From a virus (Duplodnaviria; Caudoviricetes), in the IMG/VR virus record IMGVR_UViG_3300028591_000109, positions 64,001 to 128,000 of that record: a stretch of 64,000 bases of DNA; one strand, written 5' to 3'. This document shows positions 6 through 21,411 of this stretch, piece after piece (position 1 is the first letter of the stretch; every line of letters begins with the position of its first letter). The notes under the pieces were generated by a model, which saw only the letters and a program-made list of their open reading frames with translations, made no database searches and was not told where the DNA came from. The position numbers were made by a program, and so were the translations under genes.

Positions 6-3000
6 ATGAACGCAGCCGCTGATGCCGTGGAAGGGATGCTGGGACGCAGTGTGTCGATGCAGGACGTGATGAAACAATTGAATCAACAGGGAGCTCGTGC
101 GGGCATCGTGTTCGGTCTGCTGTCGCAGAACGTGGACACGCTGGAGAAGCAGTTGAAGATTGCTACCGATGCCTACCGTGACAACACTGCCCTGATGGCG
201 GAGTATAACAAGATGAACGACACGACCGCCGCCAAGTGGGAGCGACTGAAAAACCAGCTGGAGGAAGCGTTCGTTTCCGATTCCATACAGCGTGGACTGG
301 GCTCCCTTATTGACATGCTGCGCGGACTGGTGGACTTCATCACCGGCAATGTAACAGGTGTGCTCCAAAGCTTGCGCACTGCATTCCTTATGCTTGCAGC
401 CGCTGCGACGGTCTATAGGATAGAGCTTGGCAAGATGATTTTCGTGGAAAGTCTGTCGGGCCTTAGCAATCTTAAAAAGGCTCTCGTAGGCGTAAAGGAC
501 ACTATTCTGCTGACGGCTATGTACACCAAGGACTACATAGCACTGAAATGGAAACTCATCTTCGCGCATGGCGCTGAAGAGAAAGCGGCCATCAAGGCAA
601 AGATAGCTACGCTGGGACTGAACAAGGCACTGACTGCTAACGTATGGATGGCGGTCGTTGCAGCCATAGGGATGCTGTTGCTGAAGCTGTACCAATTTAA
701 CAAGGCTGCCAAGGAGGCTGCCGCAGAGACAGGACGTTTCAATCAGCAGATAGCCGACGAGCAGAAAGCCCTTAACAAGTTGTTTGAGCCGCTGAACAGG
801 TCGAACATGGCACAGGAAGAGCGACTGAAGCTCATCAACGAAATCAACTCGAAGTACGGCAAGTACCTGGGTTATATGCTCAGTGAGACATCTTCGGCCA
901 TTGCACTGGCCGACGCCCACGCCCTGATAGCCAAGCGCATCAGGGAGGAAGCCTACGAGAAGCGTATAGCCGAGAAGGAGGCGAAGATACAGGATGAGCA
1001 CAGCGAGGACGTGAACGCAGCCTACACCAAGATAACGGAGCGTGTACGTGGCAGCGTCAGGGGCGGTGCCAGCGCACAGGAGATTGCCGACGTGCTGAAA
1101 GGCATCGTTGACAACCGACTGGGCAGCATCAAGTATGCCTACGACGATTCGGACAATATCTTCAAAGCCCGTACCAACTACTACCTTGATCCAAAGATTA
1201 AGCAGGCCATCGACGGCGGCATCGAGCGGCTGATTGTTGACGGCAAACTGTCGCGTGACAACGTGACGCTGATTCAGAAGGCAGTATATAAATATACGGT
1301 AGAAGCCCACAGCCAGCACAAGGATATCATGAACCAGACATCGAACCTACGCTCTGACCTTCGCGGTGTGCAGAGTGCCATCAAGGTTGACCTGGCCAAC
1401 AACCTGAATACACTTGTCAGCAGGGTAGCCAGTTCGGTAGGCAATGCTGTGAGGAATATCCGCCAGCAGCAACAGCCACAGCAGAACGTGCCGCTGATGC
1501 TGCAGCAGCCACAGGGACAGGGTAGCAGACTGCCAAGTCTGTTTGGTGGAGGTCAGCAGGGCGGATGGCAGGCACCGTGGCAACAGGGCCGCGAGACTAC
1601 ACCGCAGCAGCAGGCGGCTCCGAAGGGATGGAAGCCTAATATAGACAAAAAGGACACAGAGGCGGTTCGCCAGTTCGTGCAAGACCAGGAGGCACTGCGC
1701 AGCGCACTGAATGCCAGCGGCAATCAGATAGACGAAGCACAGCGCAGGGTGGCTGAGTCGTGGCTGCTGACGGATGCCGAACTGAAGGAATACAAGAAGA
1801 TCGTGGAGAAGGCCGACCGTGGCCCCGGCGGCAGCAACCACAACCCTTACGGCGACTACAACAAAGTGACCTCGCCCTACAAGGAGTGGAACGGCAACGA
1901 CCTGGTGGCCCGCCGCAAGGAGATGCTGGAGCGCGTGAAGGCACTGGCCAACGGTGCCGACGTGCAGGCTGTGCTGTCGGAGGATGCCAAGTTTATCAGC
2001 GAGGCCGTGCGCAAGAACATCAAGACCACGGACCAGGCTATCGAGTGGTATAACACCGAGCGCCTGAAGATACAGGATGCGCTGCACGCCAAGCACCTGA
2101 CAAACACCGGCGACTGGATGGACCCGGAGAAGGTGAGGAAGCGTGTGGGCCGCGTGGTAAATGACGAGATGAAATACTATCTGGACGAACTGGACGCCTA
2201 CTACACCGAGCGGAAGGCGAAGATTCAGGAGGCACAGAACGACCAGGAGATAAGCGAGGCAGAGGCACGCAACCGCACGCTGGCCAACGATGCCGAGTGG
2301 CAGCAGCGTCGCGCCGAACTGCAACTGCTGTACTCGAAGCGTCGCGGCGAGGTGGTACAGCAGGAACAGGACGAAATCTTCCGCATCATATCGGAGCGCA
2401 CGGGCGAGACCACCGCCTACATCAAGGCCGACATCGCACAGACAAACCATCTCATCGAGGAGACAGGCAAGAAGAACAAGGCCGCCATGGACCGCATCTA
2501 CGGCGACATAGAACTGGGTGCCGAAAGGAGTTTCCTGCGCCAGCGCAACGCCATCGGGCAGCACATGAAGGACATCACGGCCATCGTGAACAAGGAGAAC
2601 CCCTACGCGGGCATCGCCGAGGAACTGCGCAAGAACCTGGGTACGATGGACGCGCTGCTGACCGACATCGAGAAGGAGGAGGAGCGCACCATGGAGAAGG
2701 AGATAGAGCGCACGATGTTCATCCTGGAGCAGTCGACCAAGGGCTACAGCCTGACGTGGGAGCAGCTGATGGGCGAGATGGCAAAGCGCGGCTGGCAGGC
2801 GTGGGCCGACGCCATCGACGGCGACTCGCAGACGCAGCAGCGGCTGATGCACCAGGTGTACCGCGTGTTCGAGAAGGTGCAGGATGCCATCAAGAAGGAA
2901 GCGTCGGAACTGAAGAAGCAGGCTGACATCATGTGGAGCAACATACTGCTGCCCGGCGGCGACGGCAAGACCACCATCAAGGATGCCTTCGAGCAGGCCA

Positions 3001-5153
3001 TCGGTGCGCTGGGCATCCAGGAGGGGCGCGTGAGCAGAGCCAACTCGCTCATCGGTGCAGGAGTAGCCAGCGAGCGCGTCGCCGATAAGCTCGCCATCCA
3101 GCAGCTGAAGGTGCAACTGGCCATGCAGCAGTATCAGTACAGTCTGGTGCATAAGATAGGTAAGGAGAAGATAGATATGCTGCGACGCGAGGCGGAGATG
3201 GAGTCGGACGCGGAGAAAGCCCGTCAGCTGAGGATGCAGGCACAGAACGCCGAAATGGCGCTGAACCTTGCCACCCGCAAGGAGCAGACCGACGAACTGA
3301 AACTGCAGGAAGATATCATCGCCAAGACGGAAGAGTCTGAGGCACGGCTCTATAAGGAGTTGCGCGAGTGGGCCGACCTGCTGACGAGCAGTTTGCAGGG
3401 CGTGATGGAGGCGAGCCATGCCGGCGATGCGGAATACTACAACGAGCTGGCGAAGCTGAACTTGACCGGCAAAGGCGGGCCAGGCGCAGGCACCTACATC
3501 GTCATTGACGATGCAGGCACCAGCGACGCCACCGCGCACTACGAATACCTCGACGAGCGGCAGGCCCTGGAGCGCGAGCACGAGATAGAGCAGCAGAACG
3601 CCCAGGCCGAGGCATGGAAGAAGGTGATGGATGACATCAACATGAAACTCAGCGAGACCATCACCGACCAGATCAATGCCATGCTGCAGAACCAGAGCAT
3701 TGATGCGAATACACAAGCGGTGCTTGCCAACACGCAAGCCATCTATGCGTCGATGGGGCAGAGTGCAGGTACAGGCGAGGGAATCACCCGCAATGCAGAG
3801 GGTTTCGCCGTTGACGAGAGCGGACAGGTGATATCGCCTATACAGCCGACGGAACCGACAAGTCAGCCGGAAGCCGAGACTCCAGCATGGAAGCCTTTCT
3901 GGCAGATGACGGACGAGGAGAAGGCCAAGAATCAGGAGAACATGACCGAGATGTTCGGCATGTACAGAGACCTTAGCGTGCAGACCGAGACGGAGAAAGC
4001 GGAATTGCTGGCCGAGGTGCCGGGATATACGCCTCCTGCCATCAGCATGACCGATGAGCAGATAGAGTCGGTAGGCGAGAAACTGGAAGCTCTCAACCAA
4101 AAGGAGATAGATGCAAGCAAGAAGAAGACGCAGGCTATTCTGGCCGACCAACAGGCGATAAAGCAGGGCGAGTTGCAGACCGACAAGACGATGACGCAAT
4201 CATCGAAGAACATGTACGCAGCCATGATGTCGGCTGCCAACCTCTACGGCGTGGCTTATCAGGCCATGACCAACGATAACTTGAGCGCTGAGCAGAAGTT
4301 CCAGATGATTGCCCTGCAGGCGGCAGGACAGTCGGCCATCGCAATGATGCAGACTAACATGTTCAAGTCCGAGACGGGCGCCCTCGTAGCACTGCCGCAA
4401 ATCCTTGCCGAGTGCTTGGAAATCAACCCGATTGCCGGTGCCGCCATCTTCGCCGTGCTGAGTGCCCTGCTGGGCGTGGCCATCGGAGCAGCCACCAGCA
4501 AGCTGGCCAAGGGTAAGTCGGAGGTGGCGCAAGTCACAGGTGCCAGCGCATCCGCTGGTCGCCTCTCGACGGGTATGCTGACCTACGCCGAAGGTAACGT
4601 GAACGAGTTTACTGACCCGGCATCGCTGACGCCGGGCCGACAGTACAACGTGGACGGGGCGGACGGCAAGACCTACCGCGCCCGGTACATGGGCAAGGGA
4701 GCCAAGACCCACATCACCAACGGGCCGGAGTTTCACCTCGTGGGCGAGGCAGGCCGCGAGGCCATCATCGACGCGAAGACCACCCGCCTGCTGCAGATGA
4801 ACGAGACCGGCATCTGGCGCGACATACAGACGCTCTACAACGGCGGCAGCATCGCGGGGCTGAGCACCCGCCGCCGTCGCGGCACTGGCGTGGCCGCTTT
4901 CGCGGATGGCAACGTCGGGGAGTTCGAGGAGATGGCTGATGGCGGAGGGCTGACGGCTGATGGAACGGGCGGCATGAACGCCGACGTGATGACCTCAATG
5001 CTGGAAACCAACAGCCGACTGGCCGACCTCTTGGAGAACGCCCTTGCGAACGGCATCAAGGCCGTAAACAAATGGACGGGCAGCGACGGCATCCCTGCGA
5101 TGTATAACAAGATGCAGAAGGAGGCGCAAAGGCACGGTGAGAAATACCTGTAG
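6..5153 (+). CDS. Phage tail tape measure protein (5'-truncated by window edge)
   Basis: 1715+ aa, Ala/Glu/Gln/Lys-rich helical protein with hydrophobic stretches and a C-terminal LVGEAGREAIID motif typical of TMP ends; virion gene context. Confidence 0.85.
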   Translation: MNAAADAVEGMLGRSVSMQDVMKQLNQQGARAGIVFGLLSQNVDTLEKQLKIATDAYRDNTALMAEYNKMNDTTAAKWERLKNQLEEAFVSDSIQRGLGSLIDMLRGLVDFITGNVTGVLQSLRTAFLMLAAAATVYRIELGKMIFVESLSGLSNLKKALVGVKDTILLTAMYTKDYIALKWKLIFAHGAEEKAAIKAKIATLGLNKALTANVWMAVVAAIGMLLLKLYQFNKAAKEAAAETGRFNQQIADEQKALNKLFEPLNRSNMAQEERLKLINEINSKYGKYLGYMLSETSSAIALADAHALIAKRIREEAYEKRIAEKEAKIQDEHSEDVNAAYTKITERVRGSVRGGASAQEIADVLKGIVDNRLGSIKYAYDDSDNIFKARTNYYLDPKIKQAIDGGIERLIVDGKLSRDNVTLIQKAVYKYTVEAHSQHKDIMNQTSNLRSDLRGVQSAIKVDLANNLNTLVSRVASSVGNAVRNIRQQQQPQQNVPLMLQQPQGQGSRLPSLFGGGQQGGWQAPWQQGRETTPQQQAAPKGWKPNIDKKDTEAVRQFVQDQEALRSALNASGNQIDEAQRRVAESWLLTDAELKEYKKIVEKADRGPGGSNHNPYGDYNKVTSPYKEWNGNDLVARRKEMLERVKALANGADVQAVLSEDAKFISEAVRKNIKTTDQAIEWYNTERLKIQDALHAKHLTNTGDWMDPEKVRKRVGRVVNDEMKYYLDELDAYYTERKAKIQEAQNDQEISEAEARNRTLANDAEWQQRRAELQLLYSKRRGEVVQQEQDEIFRIISERTGETTAYIKADIAQTNHLIEETGKKNKAAMDRIYGDIELGAERSFLRQRNAIGQHMKDITAIVNKENPYAGIAEELRKNLGTMDALLTDIEKEEERTMEKEIERTMFILEQSTKGYSLTWEQLMGEMAKRGWQAWADAIDGDSQTQQRLMHQVYRVFEKVQDAIKKEASELKKQADIMWSNILLPGGDGKTTIKDAFEQAIGALGIQEGRVSRANSLIGAGVASERVADKLAIQQLKVQLAMQQYQYSLVHKIGKEKIDMLRREAEMESDAEKARQLRMQAQNAEMALNLATRKEQTDELKLQEDIIAKTEESEARLYKELREWADLLTSSLQGVMEASHAGDAEYYNELAKLNLTGKGGPGAGTYIVIDDAGTSDATAHYEYLDERQALEREHEIEQQNAQAEAWKKVMDDINMKLSETITDQINAMLQNQSIDANTQAVLANTQAIYASMGQSAGTGEGITRNAEGFAVDESGQVISPIQPTEPTSQPEAETPAWKPFWQMTDEEKAKNQENMTEMFGMYRDLSVQTETEKAELLAEVPGYTPPAISMTDEQIESVGEKLEALNQKEIDASKKKTQAILADQQAIKQGELQTDKTMTQSSKNMYAAMMSAANLYGVAYQAMTNDNLSAEQKFQMIALQAAGQSAIAMMQTNMFKSETGALVALPQILAECLEINPIAGAAIFAVLSALLGVAIGAATSKLAKGKSEVAQVTGASASAGRLSTGMLTYAEGNVNEFTDPASLTPGRQYNVDGADGKTYRARYMGKGAKTHITNGPEFHLVGEAGREAIIDAKTTRLLQMNETGIWRDIQTLYNGGSIAGLSTRRRRGTGVAAFADGNVGEFEEMADGGGLTADGTGGMNADVMTSMLETNSRLADLLENALANGIKAVNKWTGSDGIPAMYNKMQKEAQRHGEKYL

Positions 5154-17048: not shown

Positions 17049-17612
17049 TTACTCGGCTTGCTGGTTATCGTTCTGACTCTGCGACGGGAACAGGGCCTCG
17101 TAGGGAGCCCAGTCGATGGCATCCTTCTCCCGCCAGCCTGCGGCCAGCGTCTGGTTGATGTGGGCGACGGCCTTCACGTAGAAGTCCTGAGCGCCGGCCA
17201 TCGTCTCGAAGGTGTGGTAGACGGGCGTGCCGTCCTCCCGCTCGCCCAGCTTGAAGGTGACTGGCAGCGTCGCGCCCCCGGTCTGCACGGCGAGGTCGTA
17301 GGCCGCCTTGAAGTTGAACTGGTTCTCGCTGGAGAGCCACACAGAGACGGACTCCTCTGCGCCTTCGGGAGTCCATACGAAACCGGAGAGGATCTTCTCG
17401 TCGGTGCGGGCGTTGATGTCGGCAAGGATGGCGGCCTTCACGTCGGCAAACGAGATGGTGGCGTGCTGACGCTTGTAGAGGTAGACCTCATACCAGGAGG
17501 CAAGGCCGCCTGCCTGTTCAGGCTGCTGCAGTCCATAACATACGGTGACGCGCGAACCCTCGTCGCGCAGTGGAGCGTAGTCGCTCACGGGTCCTGTGGT
17601 CTTGTTCTTCAT
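17049..17612 (-). CDS. Phage tail-fibre-associated protein (DUF4376-like)
   Basis: VWLSSENQFNFKAAYD, TLPVTFKLG and GWREKD motifs; downstream of receptor-binding genes. Confidence 0.6.
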   Translation of the reverse strand: MKNKTTGPVSDYAPLRDEGSRVTVCYGLQQPEQAGGLASWYEVYLYKRQHATISFADVKAAILADINARTDEKILSGFVWTPEGAEESVSVWLSSENQFNFKAAYDLAVQTGGATLPVTFKLGEREDGTPVYHTFETMAGAQDFYVKAVAHINQTLAAGWREKDAIDWAPYEALFPSQSQNDNQQAE

Positions 17613-17699
17613 TGTGATAATTATTTAAATGGGTGAATAATGGTTTTATCGGGATGGCTGCGATGGTATCGCAGCATACTGGACGGAGGGAGATTTCCG

Positions 17700-18338
17700 C
17701 TATGCGGCTCGCTGCATACGGGTCATGTCGGCGTCGAAGTAGCCGATGCGCAGGTACTCGGGACGGAAAAACAGCTCGCGGCGCAGGCGGTAGCTGGCCG
17801 TCTGGCGCAGGATGCCGAGGTAGGAGTTGACCGTGCGCACCACCTTGTCGGGACGGTTGAAGTCCATCTCGCGCAGGTGGCGGCGTATGCGCTGCAGCGA
17901 GGTCAGGTTGCCGTGATCGTCGGGCATCTGGATGGGCACGTCAATGCGCCCGTCCTCCACGTCGCGCCAGTCGAGCACCAGTTCCTTGGGCAGGTACTTG
18001 TCGAACGACTTCTCCTGGAATCCCACGAAGATGTACTCGCCACCAATGTTCTTGGCGAATTTCTTCACTGCCGTGGGCGGAACAATCTCCATGTCGGGGT
18101 GCAGGCGCTTCATCTGCGAGGTGATGACCACGGCCACCAGCCACGCGCTCCACTCGTTGGCGTGCCAGTAGTTTCCGTCGCGCAGCAGGTGAACCACGTT
18201 CCACTTCTCAGGTTCCTTCCTGTCGGCCTCGATGGTTTGGATTTCCTGGTTGGTGAATCCCTTCCGCTCGCCCTGCTGCTTGGGCAGCTGGACTTTGGCA
18301 GACGGTTGGTTCTGTTGTTGTGTCTGTGTTGTTGACAT
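17700..18338 (-). pseudogene. In-frame fusion of a MutS-N-like DGR accessory protein with the C-terminal (thumb) remnant of a DGR reverse transcriptase
   Basis: aa 48-116 VVHLLRDGNYWHANEWSAWL...FVGFQEKSFDKYL resemble the MutS domain I-like accessory protein; aa ~145-212 carry VNSYLGIL..TASYRLRR typical of DGR RT C-termini; no YxDD core; adjacent to two DGR targets. Confidence 0.65.
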
Positions 18339-18365
18339 ATCTCTATTTGTCTATTATTTTTTCTG

Positions 18366-18486
18366 TTGGTTTCCTTCGTCCGCCCCACTGCTGCTGTGCC
18401 GCGCTGGGGCGCGGCGGTGCAGCAGTGAAGCGCACGAAGGAATGGTTCGGGCGGAAGTATTACTGGACCGGCCGAACCGGGAAACC
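18366..18486 (-). repeat. DGR target 3' cis element: IMH-like invariant end plus ~72-nt GC-rich hairpin (copy 1)
   Basis: Identical to 19904-20024; nested stems ttccttcgt/acgaaggaa, cactgctgc/gcagcagtg and gccgcgc/gcgcggc. Confidence 0.85.
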
Positions 18487-19353
18487 GCAGTACCGATCGT
18501 ACGCGCCCTGCGGGCGGACACCATTGGGATAGAAGTACAGGCCCCGGGCGTGGCGAGCCGAATCGAACGTCGACGACCAGAAGTAGCCACTGCCCGTGCG
18601 ATTGACCCACGAACGGCCATAGCCGAGACCGGACGCCGGAAAGAAAAGAAGATTACCGTTGATCTTCGAGCGCAGATAGAGACCGTTGATGCCGTTCACC
18701 GTCACGCGCTTGTCGGCAGCCTTCTTGGCGATGCTGGTCTCTGCCGTCACCACGTTGCCGTCGGCGTCGATGTAGTCGATATTGGCGAACAGCTCCGCGA
18801 AGTCTTCATTGCTTGGCATGCGCCAGGGGGCACCGAGGCAGGCGCGGGCGGCGTCCATCGAGGGAGGTATATTTCCCGTGAGCGTATTACCCGGCGTGTC
18901 GCCGTACACCTGTCCGTCGTACCACGGCTCTGCGGAGTTCACGCTGCCCCAGTTGTAGTCAAAGGCTGATGTGCTGCTGGGATTGTGTCCGTCGGTGTTG
19001 CCCCACGAGAAGAATGAGCACTCGTACTTGAAGGGCGATACTGCGCCGTCCACCTCCTGGAATTTCGACGCCGTGGCGAGGTCGATGGAGGCCTTGGCCC
19101 AGAGCACGCCGGAGGGCAGGCCCATGTCTACGAAGAGGTCGGTATCGACGTAGGGCTTCTGGTATTCCAGGATGTCGCTGAGTTTCTTGCCCGTCTTCAG
19201 GTCAATAACGGCATCCGTCGAGAGGGGCGTCTTGTTGGCGGGCGTACCGTCGTCGTTGAAGAGCATCACCTGTTGAGTTTTGCCGGCGGTGGTGGCTGCC
19301 GTGAGGCCGCTCTGCACGGCCTTCAGGGCGTTAAGTTTGGTAATTGTTTCCAT
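18460..19353 (-). CDS. DGR target protein 1 (C-type lectin-fold variable domain; probable receptor-binding protein)
   Basis: VDMGLPSGVLWA, WRMPS, LFFPASG, YFWSST and GFPVRPV motifs; VR at ~18463-18630. Confidence 0.85.
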   Translation of the reverse strand: METITKLNALKAVQSGLTAATTAGKTQQVMLFNDDGTPANKTPLSTDAVIDLKTGKKLSDILEYQKPYVDTDLFVDMGLPSGVLWAKASIDLATASKFQEVDGAVSPFKYECSFFSWGNTDGHNPSSTSAFDYNWGSVNSAEPWYDGQVYGDTPGNTLTGNIPPSMDAARACLGAPWRMPSNEDFAELFANIDYIDADGNVVTAETSIAKKAADKRVTVNGINGLYLRSKINGNLLFFPASGLGYGRSWVNRTGSGYFWSSTFDSARHARGLYFYPNGVRPQGAYDRYCGFPVRPVQ

Positions 19354-19433
19354 TGCTGTGTTGTATTGTTTCGTTGTTTACTGTTTCTTTTACAAAGAAG
19401 ATTGCGGCGGTGCCGTCGACGGCATCCCGTCGG

Positions 19434-19883
19434 CTATGCGCTGACCACCACCGTGCGGATCATCAGTTCGGCCACGGCCTGCAGCAGCTGCTGGCGGGTG
19501 TACTGCTGCCCGTTGGCAGTGTATGTCTCGCCCTCTAATGCCGTTATCCGTGCGTTGAGTTGGCTGACCCAGTACTCTATGCTTGCGTCGGTGAATATCT
19601 CCCACCCCTCATTGGGCGCCGGGTCGGTGACGACGAACGAGCGCTTACCGTTGACGATGTTCACCACGAACTGGCCGTTCTGCACCGTCAGCGTGCAGGG
19701 CAGGTTCTGCGTAGCGGCGGTGGCGCGGTAGAGCACGCCGTTGATGCCTACAACGGCGTTATTCGGGAACGTCGATGCAGGCGTGAGCGTCGAGATGTCC
19801 ACAGGCAGCAATGCCCCTGCCTCATAAGCCATCTGCAGCTGCCCGAGGTTGACGGCCTTTTCAAGAGTGTTATTGCTTGGCAT
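19434..19883 (-). CDS. Tail-fibre module protein, paralog of 20965-21411
   Basis: Near-identical first 55 aa and similar C-terminus. Confidence 0.75.
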   Translation of the reverse strand: MPSNNTLEKAVNLGQLQMAYEAGALLPVDISTLTPASTFPNNAVVGINGVLYRATAATQNLPCTLTVQNGQFVVNIVNGKRSFVVTDPAPNEGWEIFTDASIEYWVSQLNARITALEGETYTANGQQYTRQQLLQAVAELMIRTVVVSA

Positions 19884-19903
19884 ATTCTTGTTTTATTTTT
19901 CTA

Positions 19904-20024
19904 TTGGTTTCCTTCGTCCGCCCCACTGCTGCTGTGCCGCGCTGGGGCGCGGCGGTGCAGCAGTGAAGCGCACGAAGGAATGGTTCGGGCGGAAGTATTA
20001 CTGGACCGGCCGAACCGGGAAACC
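19904..20024 (-). repeat. DGR target 3' cis element (copy 2)
   Basis: Identical to 18366-18486 at offset 1538. Confidence 0.85.
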
Positions 20025-20903
20025 GTTGGACCGATTGATCGCGTACTGCGGGTTGACACCACCGGGATAGAAGTTCAGGCTCCGGGCGAGGCGAGCCGAA
20101 CTGAACGTCGACGACCAGAAGTAGCCATTGCCCGTGCGATTGGTCCACGAACGGCCATTGCCGAAACCGGACGCCGGAAAGAAAAGAAGATTACCGTTGA
20201 TCTTCGAGCGCAGGTAGAGGCCGTTGATGCCGTTCACCGTCACGCGCTTGTCGGCAGCCGTCTTGGCGATGCTGGTCTCTGCCGTCACCACGTTGCCGTC
20301 GGCGTCGATGTAGTCGATATTGGCGAACAGCTCCGTGAAGTCCTCATTGCTCGGCATGCGCCAGGGCGCACCGAGGCAGGCGCGGGCGGCGTCCATCGAG
20401 GGCGGAATGTTGCCCGTGAGCGTATTACCCGGCGTGTCGCCGTACACCTGTCCGTCGTAGTAGGGCTCCTGCTCGTTCACGCCGCCCCAGTTGTAATCAA
20501 AAGCGGATGTACTGCTGGGATTGTGTCCGTCGGTGTTGCCCCAAGAGAAGAATGAGCACTCGTACTTGAAGGGCGATACTGCGCCGTCCACCTCCTGGAA
20601 TTTCGACGTCGTGGTGAGGTCGATGGAGGCCTTGGCCCAGAGCACGCCGGAGGGCAGGCCCATGTCTACGAAGAGGTCGCTGTCGACGTATGGCTTCTGG
20701 TATTCCAGGATGTCGCTGAGTTTCTTGCCCGTCTTCAGGTCGATGACGGCATCGGTCGAGAGGGGCGTCTTGCCGTTAGGTGCTCCGTCGGGTCCGAAGA
20801 GCATCTGTGTCTGTGTCTTCAACGCCGTGTCTTGCGCCGTGAGTCCGCTCTGCACGGTCTTCAGCGCTTGTTGAATGGTTACTGTTCCAACATTGTCTGC
20901 CAT
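19998..20903 (-). CDS. DGR target protein 2 (paralog of target 1)
   Basis: Near-identical core to 18460-19353; VR differs only at codon positions 1-2 of NNY codons. Confidence 0.85.
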   Translation of the reverse strand: MADNVGTVTIQQALKTVQSGLTAQDTALKTQTQMLFGPDGAPNGKTPLSTDAVIDLKTGKKLSDILEYQKPYVDSDLFVDMGLPSGVLWAKASIDLTTTSKFQEVDGAVSPFKYECSFFSWGNTDGHNPSSTSAFDYNWGGVNEQEPYYDGQVYGDTPGNTLTGNIPPSMDAARACLGAPWRMPSNEDFTELFANIDYIDADGNVVTAETSIAKTAADKRVTVNGINGLYLRSKINGNLLFFPASGFGNGRSWTNRTGNGYFWSSTFSSARLARSLNFYPGGVNPQYAINRSNGFPVRPVQ

Positions 20904-20964
20904 AATTGTATTGCTTTTTTGTTTTCGTTATTACGTTATATCGTTATTTCATGAGCCACAATGG

Positions 20965-21411
20965 TCACTGCGTGACAATGGTTTTATCCATCAGCTCGGC
21001 CACGGCCTGCAGTAACTGTCGGCGCGTATATTGTTTTCCGTTGGCGGTGTAGGTCTCGGTCTCCAGTGCCGAGATTCTTTGGTCGGCCAGCGAGTAGGCG
21101 TAGGCCATGCCCGCGTCCATCCACACCTCCCAGTCGGCGTTGACGGTCATGTCCTGCACGACGAAGGCCTGCTGTCCGTTCACCTCATGGGTGACGAACT
21201 TGCCGTCGCTCACCACCATCGTCAGCGGCATCGAGGCCGTGGCCCGCTTGGCGCGGTAGAGCACGCCGCCGATGCCGATGACGGCGTTCTTCGGGAACGT
21301 CGATGCAGGCGTGAGCGTCGAGATGTCTACGGGCAGCAATGCCCCCGCCTCATAAGCCATCTGCAGCTGCCCGAGGTTGACGGCCTTTTTAAGAGTGTTA
21401 TTGCTTGGCAT
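20965..21411 (-). CDS. Tail-fibre module protein, paralog of 19434-19883
   Basis: 148 aa; duplicated together with its downstream DGR target. Confidence 0.75.
   Translation of the reverse strand: MPSNNTLKKAVNLGQLQMAYEAGALLPVDISTLTPASTFPKNAVIGIGGVLYRAKRATASMPLTMVVSDGKFVTHEVNGQQAFVVQDMTVNADWEVWMDAGMAYAYSLADQRISALETETYTANGKQYTRRQLLQAVAELMDKTIVTQ

Follow-up and report, generated by a model that had tools for sequence, protein, structure and literature searches.

In Bordetella phage BPP-1 the DGR is arranged as mtd-avd-TR-brt, so that a phage-borne target gene is followed by an accessory gene, the template repeat (TR) and the RT, and the variable repeat (VR) at the 3' end of the receptor-binding-type target gene is followed by a GC-rich hairpin. 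In other published DGRs the TR and the RT have as their neighbour the gene of a small protein of the MSL (MutS-like) type, whose N-terminus is related to MutS domain I (Wu et al. 2018, PMC5758913; bioRxiv 10.1101/2024.11.15.621889). The published DGRs with an MSL protein also carry avd. Fragmentary or deletion-killed DGR cassettes have been mentioned in the literature for crAss-like phages. In published decayed DGRs the targets keep adenine-mutagenised VRs and their cis elements, and the RT, the TR or both are truncated or absent.

The phage locus described here can be compared with each of these systems. It belongs to the same target - accessory - TR - RT type as the BPP-1 element, and the position of its VRs at the 3' ends of receptor-binding-type genes, followed by a GC-rich hairpin, is the same as well; unlike BPP-1, it has an accessory gene from a different family and two tandem targets, and its TR and RT core have been deleted. 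The accessory gene resembles those of the MSL group at the level of its family, but, unlike the published MSL DGRs, this phage gave no match to Avd, which is weak evidence since Avd is poorly conserved. Mutagenised VRs and cis elements are retained as in the published decayed DGRs. The locus differs from these in that its breakpoints can be placed at the nucleotide level against intact relatives, in that the deletion left an in-frame accessory::RT remnant, and in that the same cassette has been damaged in at least two more, independent ways in close relatives. We interpret it as the dead remnant of a phage DGR, the engine of which was removed by a deletion of about 1.6 kb that left an accidental accessory::RT remnant behind, and we put the probability of this reading at about 0.9.

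A deletion-killed DGR is by itself a well-documented and fairly ordinary instance of retroelement decay. What is new here is the precise mapping of the event, an architecture that is MutS-like and seems to lack Avd, and the recurrence of independent losses within one clade. The locus provides a cleanly mapped natural case of a phage losing targeted hypermutation and thereby locking its receptor-binding variants. The rumen/gut phage clade around it forms a natural series (an intact cassette, an RT interrupted by a nonsense codon, a different fusion), from which it could be learned under what circumstances phages retain or give up DGR activity, and which could also show whether orphan VRs get rewritten in trans.

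The chimeric reading frame and its breakpoints

The window that we analysed is a stretch of 64,000 nucleotides (64001-128000) from an IMG/VR virus record of 141,567 bp, which is 100% complete according to CheckV. The sequencing runs that best match the phage are sheep and bovine gut metagenomes, and one homologue of the accessory protein, obtained by protein search, comes from a Prevotella MAG. The minus strand carries virion and tail-fibre-like genes between 14 and 24 kb, and the features of the DGR locus lie in this region (Table 1). Because the DUF4376 gene is found 3' of the RT in intact relatives too, the synteny on the right-hand side of the locus is fixed. ARAGORN additionally reported a tmRNA-like gene outside the window (C1:16461-16768), with the tag AKVVDMTPRAQMLAAA, and also called tRNA-Met and tRNA-Gln(CTG) in the phage genome.

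Table 1. Features of the DGR locus and adjoining genes, in window coordinates.
Feature	Position	Strand	Remarks
DUF4376 gene (phrog_19239)	17049..17612	-	follows the RT in intact relatives too
Chimeric ORF, 212 aa	17700..18338	-	MutS-like accessory N-terminal domain and the last 66 RT residues, in frame
RT-derived part, aa 147-212 and TAG stop	17700..17901	-	RT residues 333-398, end of the thumb
Deletion junction	17902..17902	.	one shared C, the sole microhomology
Accessory-derived part, aa 1-146	17902..18338	-	99% aa identity to the L002 accessory, 96% to P0002
Hairpin after VR1, 72 nt, GC-rich	18371..18442	-	dG -37.6 kcal/mol, z -8.6
Target gene 1, 297 aa	18460..19353	-	VR1 at ~18463-18625
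Partner gene of target 1, 149 aa	19434..19883	-	part of the tandem-duplicated two-gene module
Hairpin after VR2, second copy	19909..19980	-	
Target gene 2, 301 aa	19998..20903	-	VR2 at ~20001-20163
Partner gene of target 2, 148 aa	20965..21411	-	part of the tandem-duplicated two-gene module

A sequence-only reading of the window had described the single ORF after the targets as a MutS-domain-I-like protein that switches, at about 17900-17915, to the C-terminal end of an RT. The ORF is present as described, and it is a chimera of accessory gene and RT. Neither Pfam nor PHROGs contains a family that matches the 212-aa protein. When it was searched against 5.8 billion proteins, the matches fell into two classes: proteins of ~210-227 aa, which align with no more than the first 58-73% of the query, and RVT_1-bearing proteins, which align with no more than its last 30-35%. 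The sole match over the full length is the protein itself, and its cluster has one member, so that no normal family of full-length homologues stands behind it. Over residues 1-146 it is 96-99% identical to the N-terminal 146 residues of a DGR accessory protein of 226 aa (P0002 96%, accessory of L002 99%), and beyond residue 146 the 212-aa protein and P0002 are unrelated.

The remainder of the protein is clearly RT. From about residue 146 to residue 212 it aligns with the C-termini of RVT_1-bearing proteins at 66-95% identity, namely at 91% with the RT fragment P0040, at 95% with P0049, at 91% with the 398-aa P0050, which was found by a second search using the last 66 aa as query, and at 66% with the end of the 344-aa RT P0046. 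The tail corresponds to the last ~67 residues of RTs of 391-398 aa (91-95% identity over 66-67 aa), and the RTs that it matches are encoded after the TR in L002, L004, L009 and L010. The ORF ends at the RT's own stop codon. The fusion protein is presumably devoid of DGR function.

Comparison with intact relatives defined the deletion. The order target - accessory - TR - RT, which the sequence-only reading had named as frequent in Bacteroidetes DGRs, was found in seven IMG/VR relatives and in L006, each with a full-length accessory gene and RT. In L002 (ENA, 4456 bp), which has the intact order, the target is located at 988-1893, the accessory gene at 2011-2691, the TR at ~2907-3069 and the RT at 3113-4309. 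Window positions 19329 to 17902 align with L002 1024-2447, and window positions 17902 to 17553 with L002 4107-4456; the 1660 nt between these two blocks are absent from the window. This alignment places the switch from accessory to RT at 17902, with a microhomology of 1 nt, within the short interval proposed before. The breakpoints fall in the same place relative to the complete 134-kb relative L010 (4439 / 6058) and relative to L009, and across the intact relatives the missing stretch amounts to ~1.62-1.66 kb. The deletion removed accessory codons 147-226, and with them the C-terminal third of the accessory protein, the spacer, the TR, and RT codons 1-~331. The accessory and RT frames are offset by one in L002 and 1660 nt were lost; therefore accessory codon 146 is in frame with RT codon ~333. 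A single in-frame deletion of the TR and most of the RT, as had been suggested, thus accounts for the ORF when set against intact relatives.

Contigs from three other ruminant-gut runs leave the window sequence exactly at 17900-17902. These divergent contigs continue as intact RT, and in one of the runs an intact accessory gene is found on the other side. Pattern scans of viral_contigs and metagenome_contigs with the RT-side junction sequence gave no match.

The sequence-only reading had reported no RT core and no third copy of the repeat, and both observations extend to the whole genome. A six-frame Pfam search for RVT_1 over the entire 141,567-bp record was empty, with controls giving matches, and the RT catalytic core (motifs 1-7, including GxxxSQ and YxDD) is absent from the whole record. 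Elsewhere in the record tblastn found neither gene, recovering only residues 332-398 with the L002 RT as query and only residues 1-146 with the accessory protein. A template repeat, which would be an adenine-rich near-copy of the VR, is absent from the phage genome: the TR of a relative matches only the two VRs, and a repeat search shows two copies. As its genome lacks TR and RT alike, the phage alone is incapable of mutagenic retrohoming, and the VR sequences of both tail-fibre-like target genes are therefore fixed. We assume that any rewriting of the VRs would have to occur in trans, through a relative infecting the same cell.

Variable repeats of the two target genes

The 3' ends of both target genes align with the AAC-rich TRs of relatives, and these TRs were used for the analysis of adenine positions because the phage's own TR has been lost. 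VR1 and VR2 differ at 22 positions, all of which (22/22) are A in TR_L002 or TR_L004. Compared with TR_L002, the two VRs are mismatched at 21/36 and 12/36 of the A sites (33-58%), and at 8/127 and 6/127 of the other sites (4-6%). The differences between the VRs are adenine-only, which means that the targets were once diversified by a DGR.

The 3' end of the VRs is conserved with the 3' ends of the relatives' TRs up to GGTCCAG, in the IMH region. From the stop codon that follows VR1 (18460-18462) to ~18362 there is no difference between the two copies, in agreement with the earlier claim that the targets keep identical cis elements. The 72-nt hairpin is located inside this identical stretch and is present after both VRs. 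The first target gene shows a weak match to a Fib_succ_major / lectin-like C-terminal end. L009 and L010 each carry a single module composed of a ~150-aa gene and a target, and in the window two such modules are found in tandem (18360-21411, including the hairpin).

These arrangements suggest a possible course of events. The ancestral cassette would have had the order target - MutS-like accessory - TR - RT - DUF4376 gene. A tandem duplication of the module of small gene and target would have come first, after which both VRs would have been diversified from one TR. An illegitimate (non-homologous) deletion of ~1.6 kb would then have taken the C-terminal third of the accessory protein, the TR and RT residues 1-~331, and accessory codons 1-146 and the last 66 RT codons would have landed in frame by chance. 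We infer that duplication, diversification of both copies and deletion followed one another in this order.

The accessory family and MutS domain I

A family profile built from 26 full-length accessory homologues retrieved 417 clusters at E <= 0.001 among 1.84 billion representatives, and most of these clusters contain proteins of 175-220 aa that are matched over their whole length. The window protein aligns with profile positions 3-143 only; the conserved C-terminal helices of the family (147-160, 189-199 and 208-225 in the model of P0002) are deleted in it. The suggested MutS-domain-I-like character of the N-terminus stands at the level of the family, but not for the protein itself. Pfam returned nothing for the window protein or for the 26 close homologues, whereas 19 of the 124 remote members recruited by the profile match MutS_I (PF01624), with a best E of 9.9e-5 and, for P0176, a score of 20.7 bits at a cut-off of 20.6. 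No other Pfam family matched more than once among these 124 proteins. An Atlas lead gave MutS_I in 17% of a neighbouring cluster.

We also compared structural models. With the model of the full-length accessory protein (pLDDT 75.6), Foldseek gives E. coli MutS at an E of 0.31 and a probability of 0.44, which is not significant. VIA-align returned only the C-terminal helical hairpin for the full-length model, with no row for MutS, and no MutS row for the model of the N-domain. The N-domain folded alone has a pLDDT of 66, and the folds that match it best are PAS-like, at a non-significant Z of 3.8. Nothing meaningful came from searching solved structures with profiles of the close (A2) and the remote (A4) family alignment, and tblastn of GenBank phages with the accessory protein gave no match.

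These findings fit the MSL accessory class described by Wu et al. (PMC5758913) as well as Msl, which is known from Bacteroides DGRs. The MutS-like gene occupies the position that avd usually takes, and Avd itself (PF05635) had no match in this phage or in four related records, which together span ~64-141 kb in size and of which all but one are rated complete, a result that carries little weight given the poor conservation of Avd. One member with an accessory N-domain, P0140 (382 aa), was considered as a further RT fusion and rejected, as it has no similarity to RTs.

Damage in related cassettes and the origin of the fusion

Another cassette of this clade carries a fusion of the same two genes. 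The Logan contig L007 encodes at 489-1664 the 391-aa protein P0049, in which accessory residues 1-158 run in frame into RT residues 166-398. The corresponding deletion of ~1123 nt (L002 2486-3608) has a microhomology of 0-1 nt and removes the TR and RT motifs 1-2, and its left breakpoint is located 38 nt from that of the window. As far as the alignments go, this is a second, independent and different in-frame accessory::RT fusion. A third junction is found on the JGI contig L005 (1-904), where the 5' part of a bacterial uvrB is in frame with the same RT C-terminal remnant; it is offset by 1 nt from the breakpoint on the RT side in the window and is situated beside a 10-bp palindrome, CGCTGCAGCG. 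L005 is probably a short-contig chimera, and P0059, an accessory::MiaA fusion, is another.

The window's fusion would itself be an artefact if the locus had been collapsed or mis-joined during assembly and the real phage had an intact DGR. DGR loci are known to break assemblies, chimeras such as L005 and P0059 exist in the same data, and in X1, which is probably the source run, the Logan contigs leave 17496-18452 uncovered, the junction included. A collapse, however, requires a repeat, and the two sides of the junction share 1 nt only. The synteny is unbroken on either side, and the identical 212-aa protein is encoded between the same neighbours on an ENA contig of 135,167 bp, and again on a Logan contig of 1,327 bp and on one contig of the 50-200-kb class, even if the assemblies carrying the fused ORF may all stem from one sample. 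Therefore the assembly collapse that had been offered as an alternative is unlikely, and we regard an artefact of either sort as extremely improbable. A real locus could still have decayed in two steps, by an L007-like deletion (accessory 158 :: RT 166) and a subsequent in-frame deletion of 537 nt. The L007 deletion indeed lies wholly inside that of the window (L002 2448-4107), but L007 is not the closest relative (its identity is 92.8% on the left side and 81.9% on the right side, that of L002 96.6% in the accessory part), and the second deletion would have had to erase the first junction and fall in frame once more. One event is more parsimonious, and we consider two unlikely.

The preferred reading, a single deletion with an accidental fusion, also has to be weighed against the possibility that the fusion was kept for a function, either because the N-domain, by itself or together with the end of the RT thumb, has a DGR-independent role or because the frame is kept against polarity on the downstream tail genes. 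L007 provides an independent in-frame fusion with a left breakpoint so close by, a recurrence that selection would explain in this case, and pN/pS values against relatives are low in both the accessory part (0.04-0.16) and the RT remnant (0.04-0.23). Most of this divergence predates the deletion, however, so that a low pN/pS is no proof that the fusion is maintained, and detection favoured in-frame products, as both cases were found as ORFs or proteins. Additionally, the 212-aa protein clusters with no other protein, and the N-domain modelled without the helix that follows it reaches a mean pLDDT of only 66, compared with 77-92 for the block means of residues 31-160 when the whole protein is modelled. 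We find a retained function distinctly unlikely. It is very doubtful, too, that the accessory-TR-RT segment is a hotspot that has been excised repeatedly in this phage clade, as opposed to random decay. This idea is based on the closeness of the left breakpoints in two lineages and on the L005 junction within 1 nt, beside CGCTGCAGCG. Such a hotspot could be caused by RT-mediated template switching on a polycistronic transcript, with the cDNA then recombining, or alternatively by selection favouring in-frame fusions in which the MutS-like N-domain is preserved; if true, hypermutation could be turned off by the phage in a reproducible manner.

The RTs of other relatives are interrupted in different ways. 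L002 (3839-3841) and L003, from two samples, have an in-frame TAG in place of the codon for the catalytic Gln in the RT motif GNLTSQ, a position that is CAG in L004 and Gln in P0050, P0049 and others. This TAG could represent either a nonsense mutation or amber suppression. Amber-interrupted DGR RTs of Zeta crAss-like phages have been attributed to suppression (PMC12386605). For the genome of the window, a recoding of TAG as Gln is not supported: it has no suppressor tRNA, and TAG ends 6/66 long ORFs. In L001 (1141-1331) the sequence at the TR position has 21 A sites, compared with 36 in L002, and looks VR-like; this TR may be degenerate or overwritten.

In the more distant relatives L006 (9184-10369), L013, L014 and L015, which come from different samples, the RT is encoded in two frames, split at residue ~75 between AAQF and PDRVVHH. 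The split site reads CAG TTT TCC GGA or CAG TTT CCC GGA, and a +1 shift is needed to pass from one frame to the other. The DGR RT of Quimbyvirus has likewise been proposed to be encoded in overlapping frames (Benler et al. 2021, PMC8008677); unlike in that phage, one shift is needed in these relatives and not two. Both parts of the split RTs are conserved and free of stop codons, and the four are candidates for a programmed frameshift.
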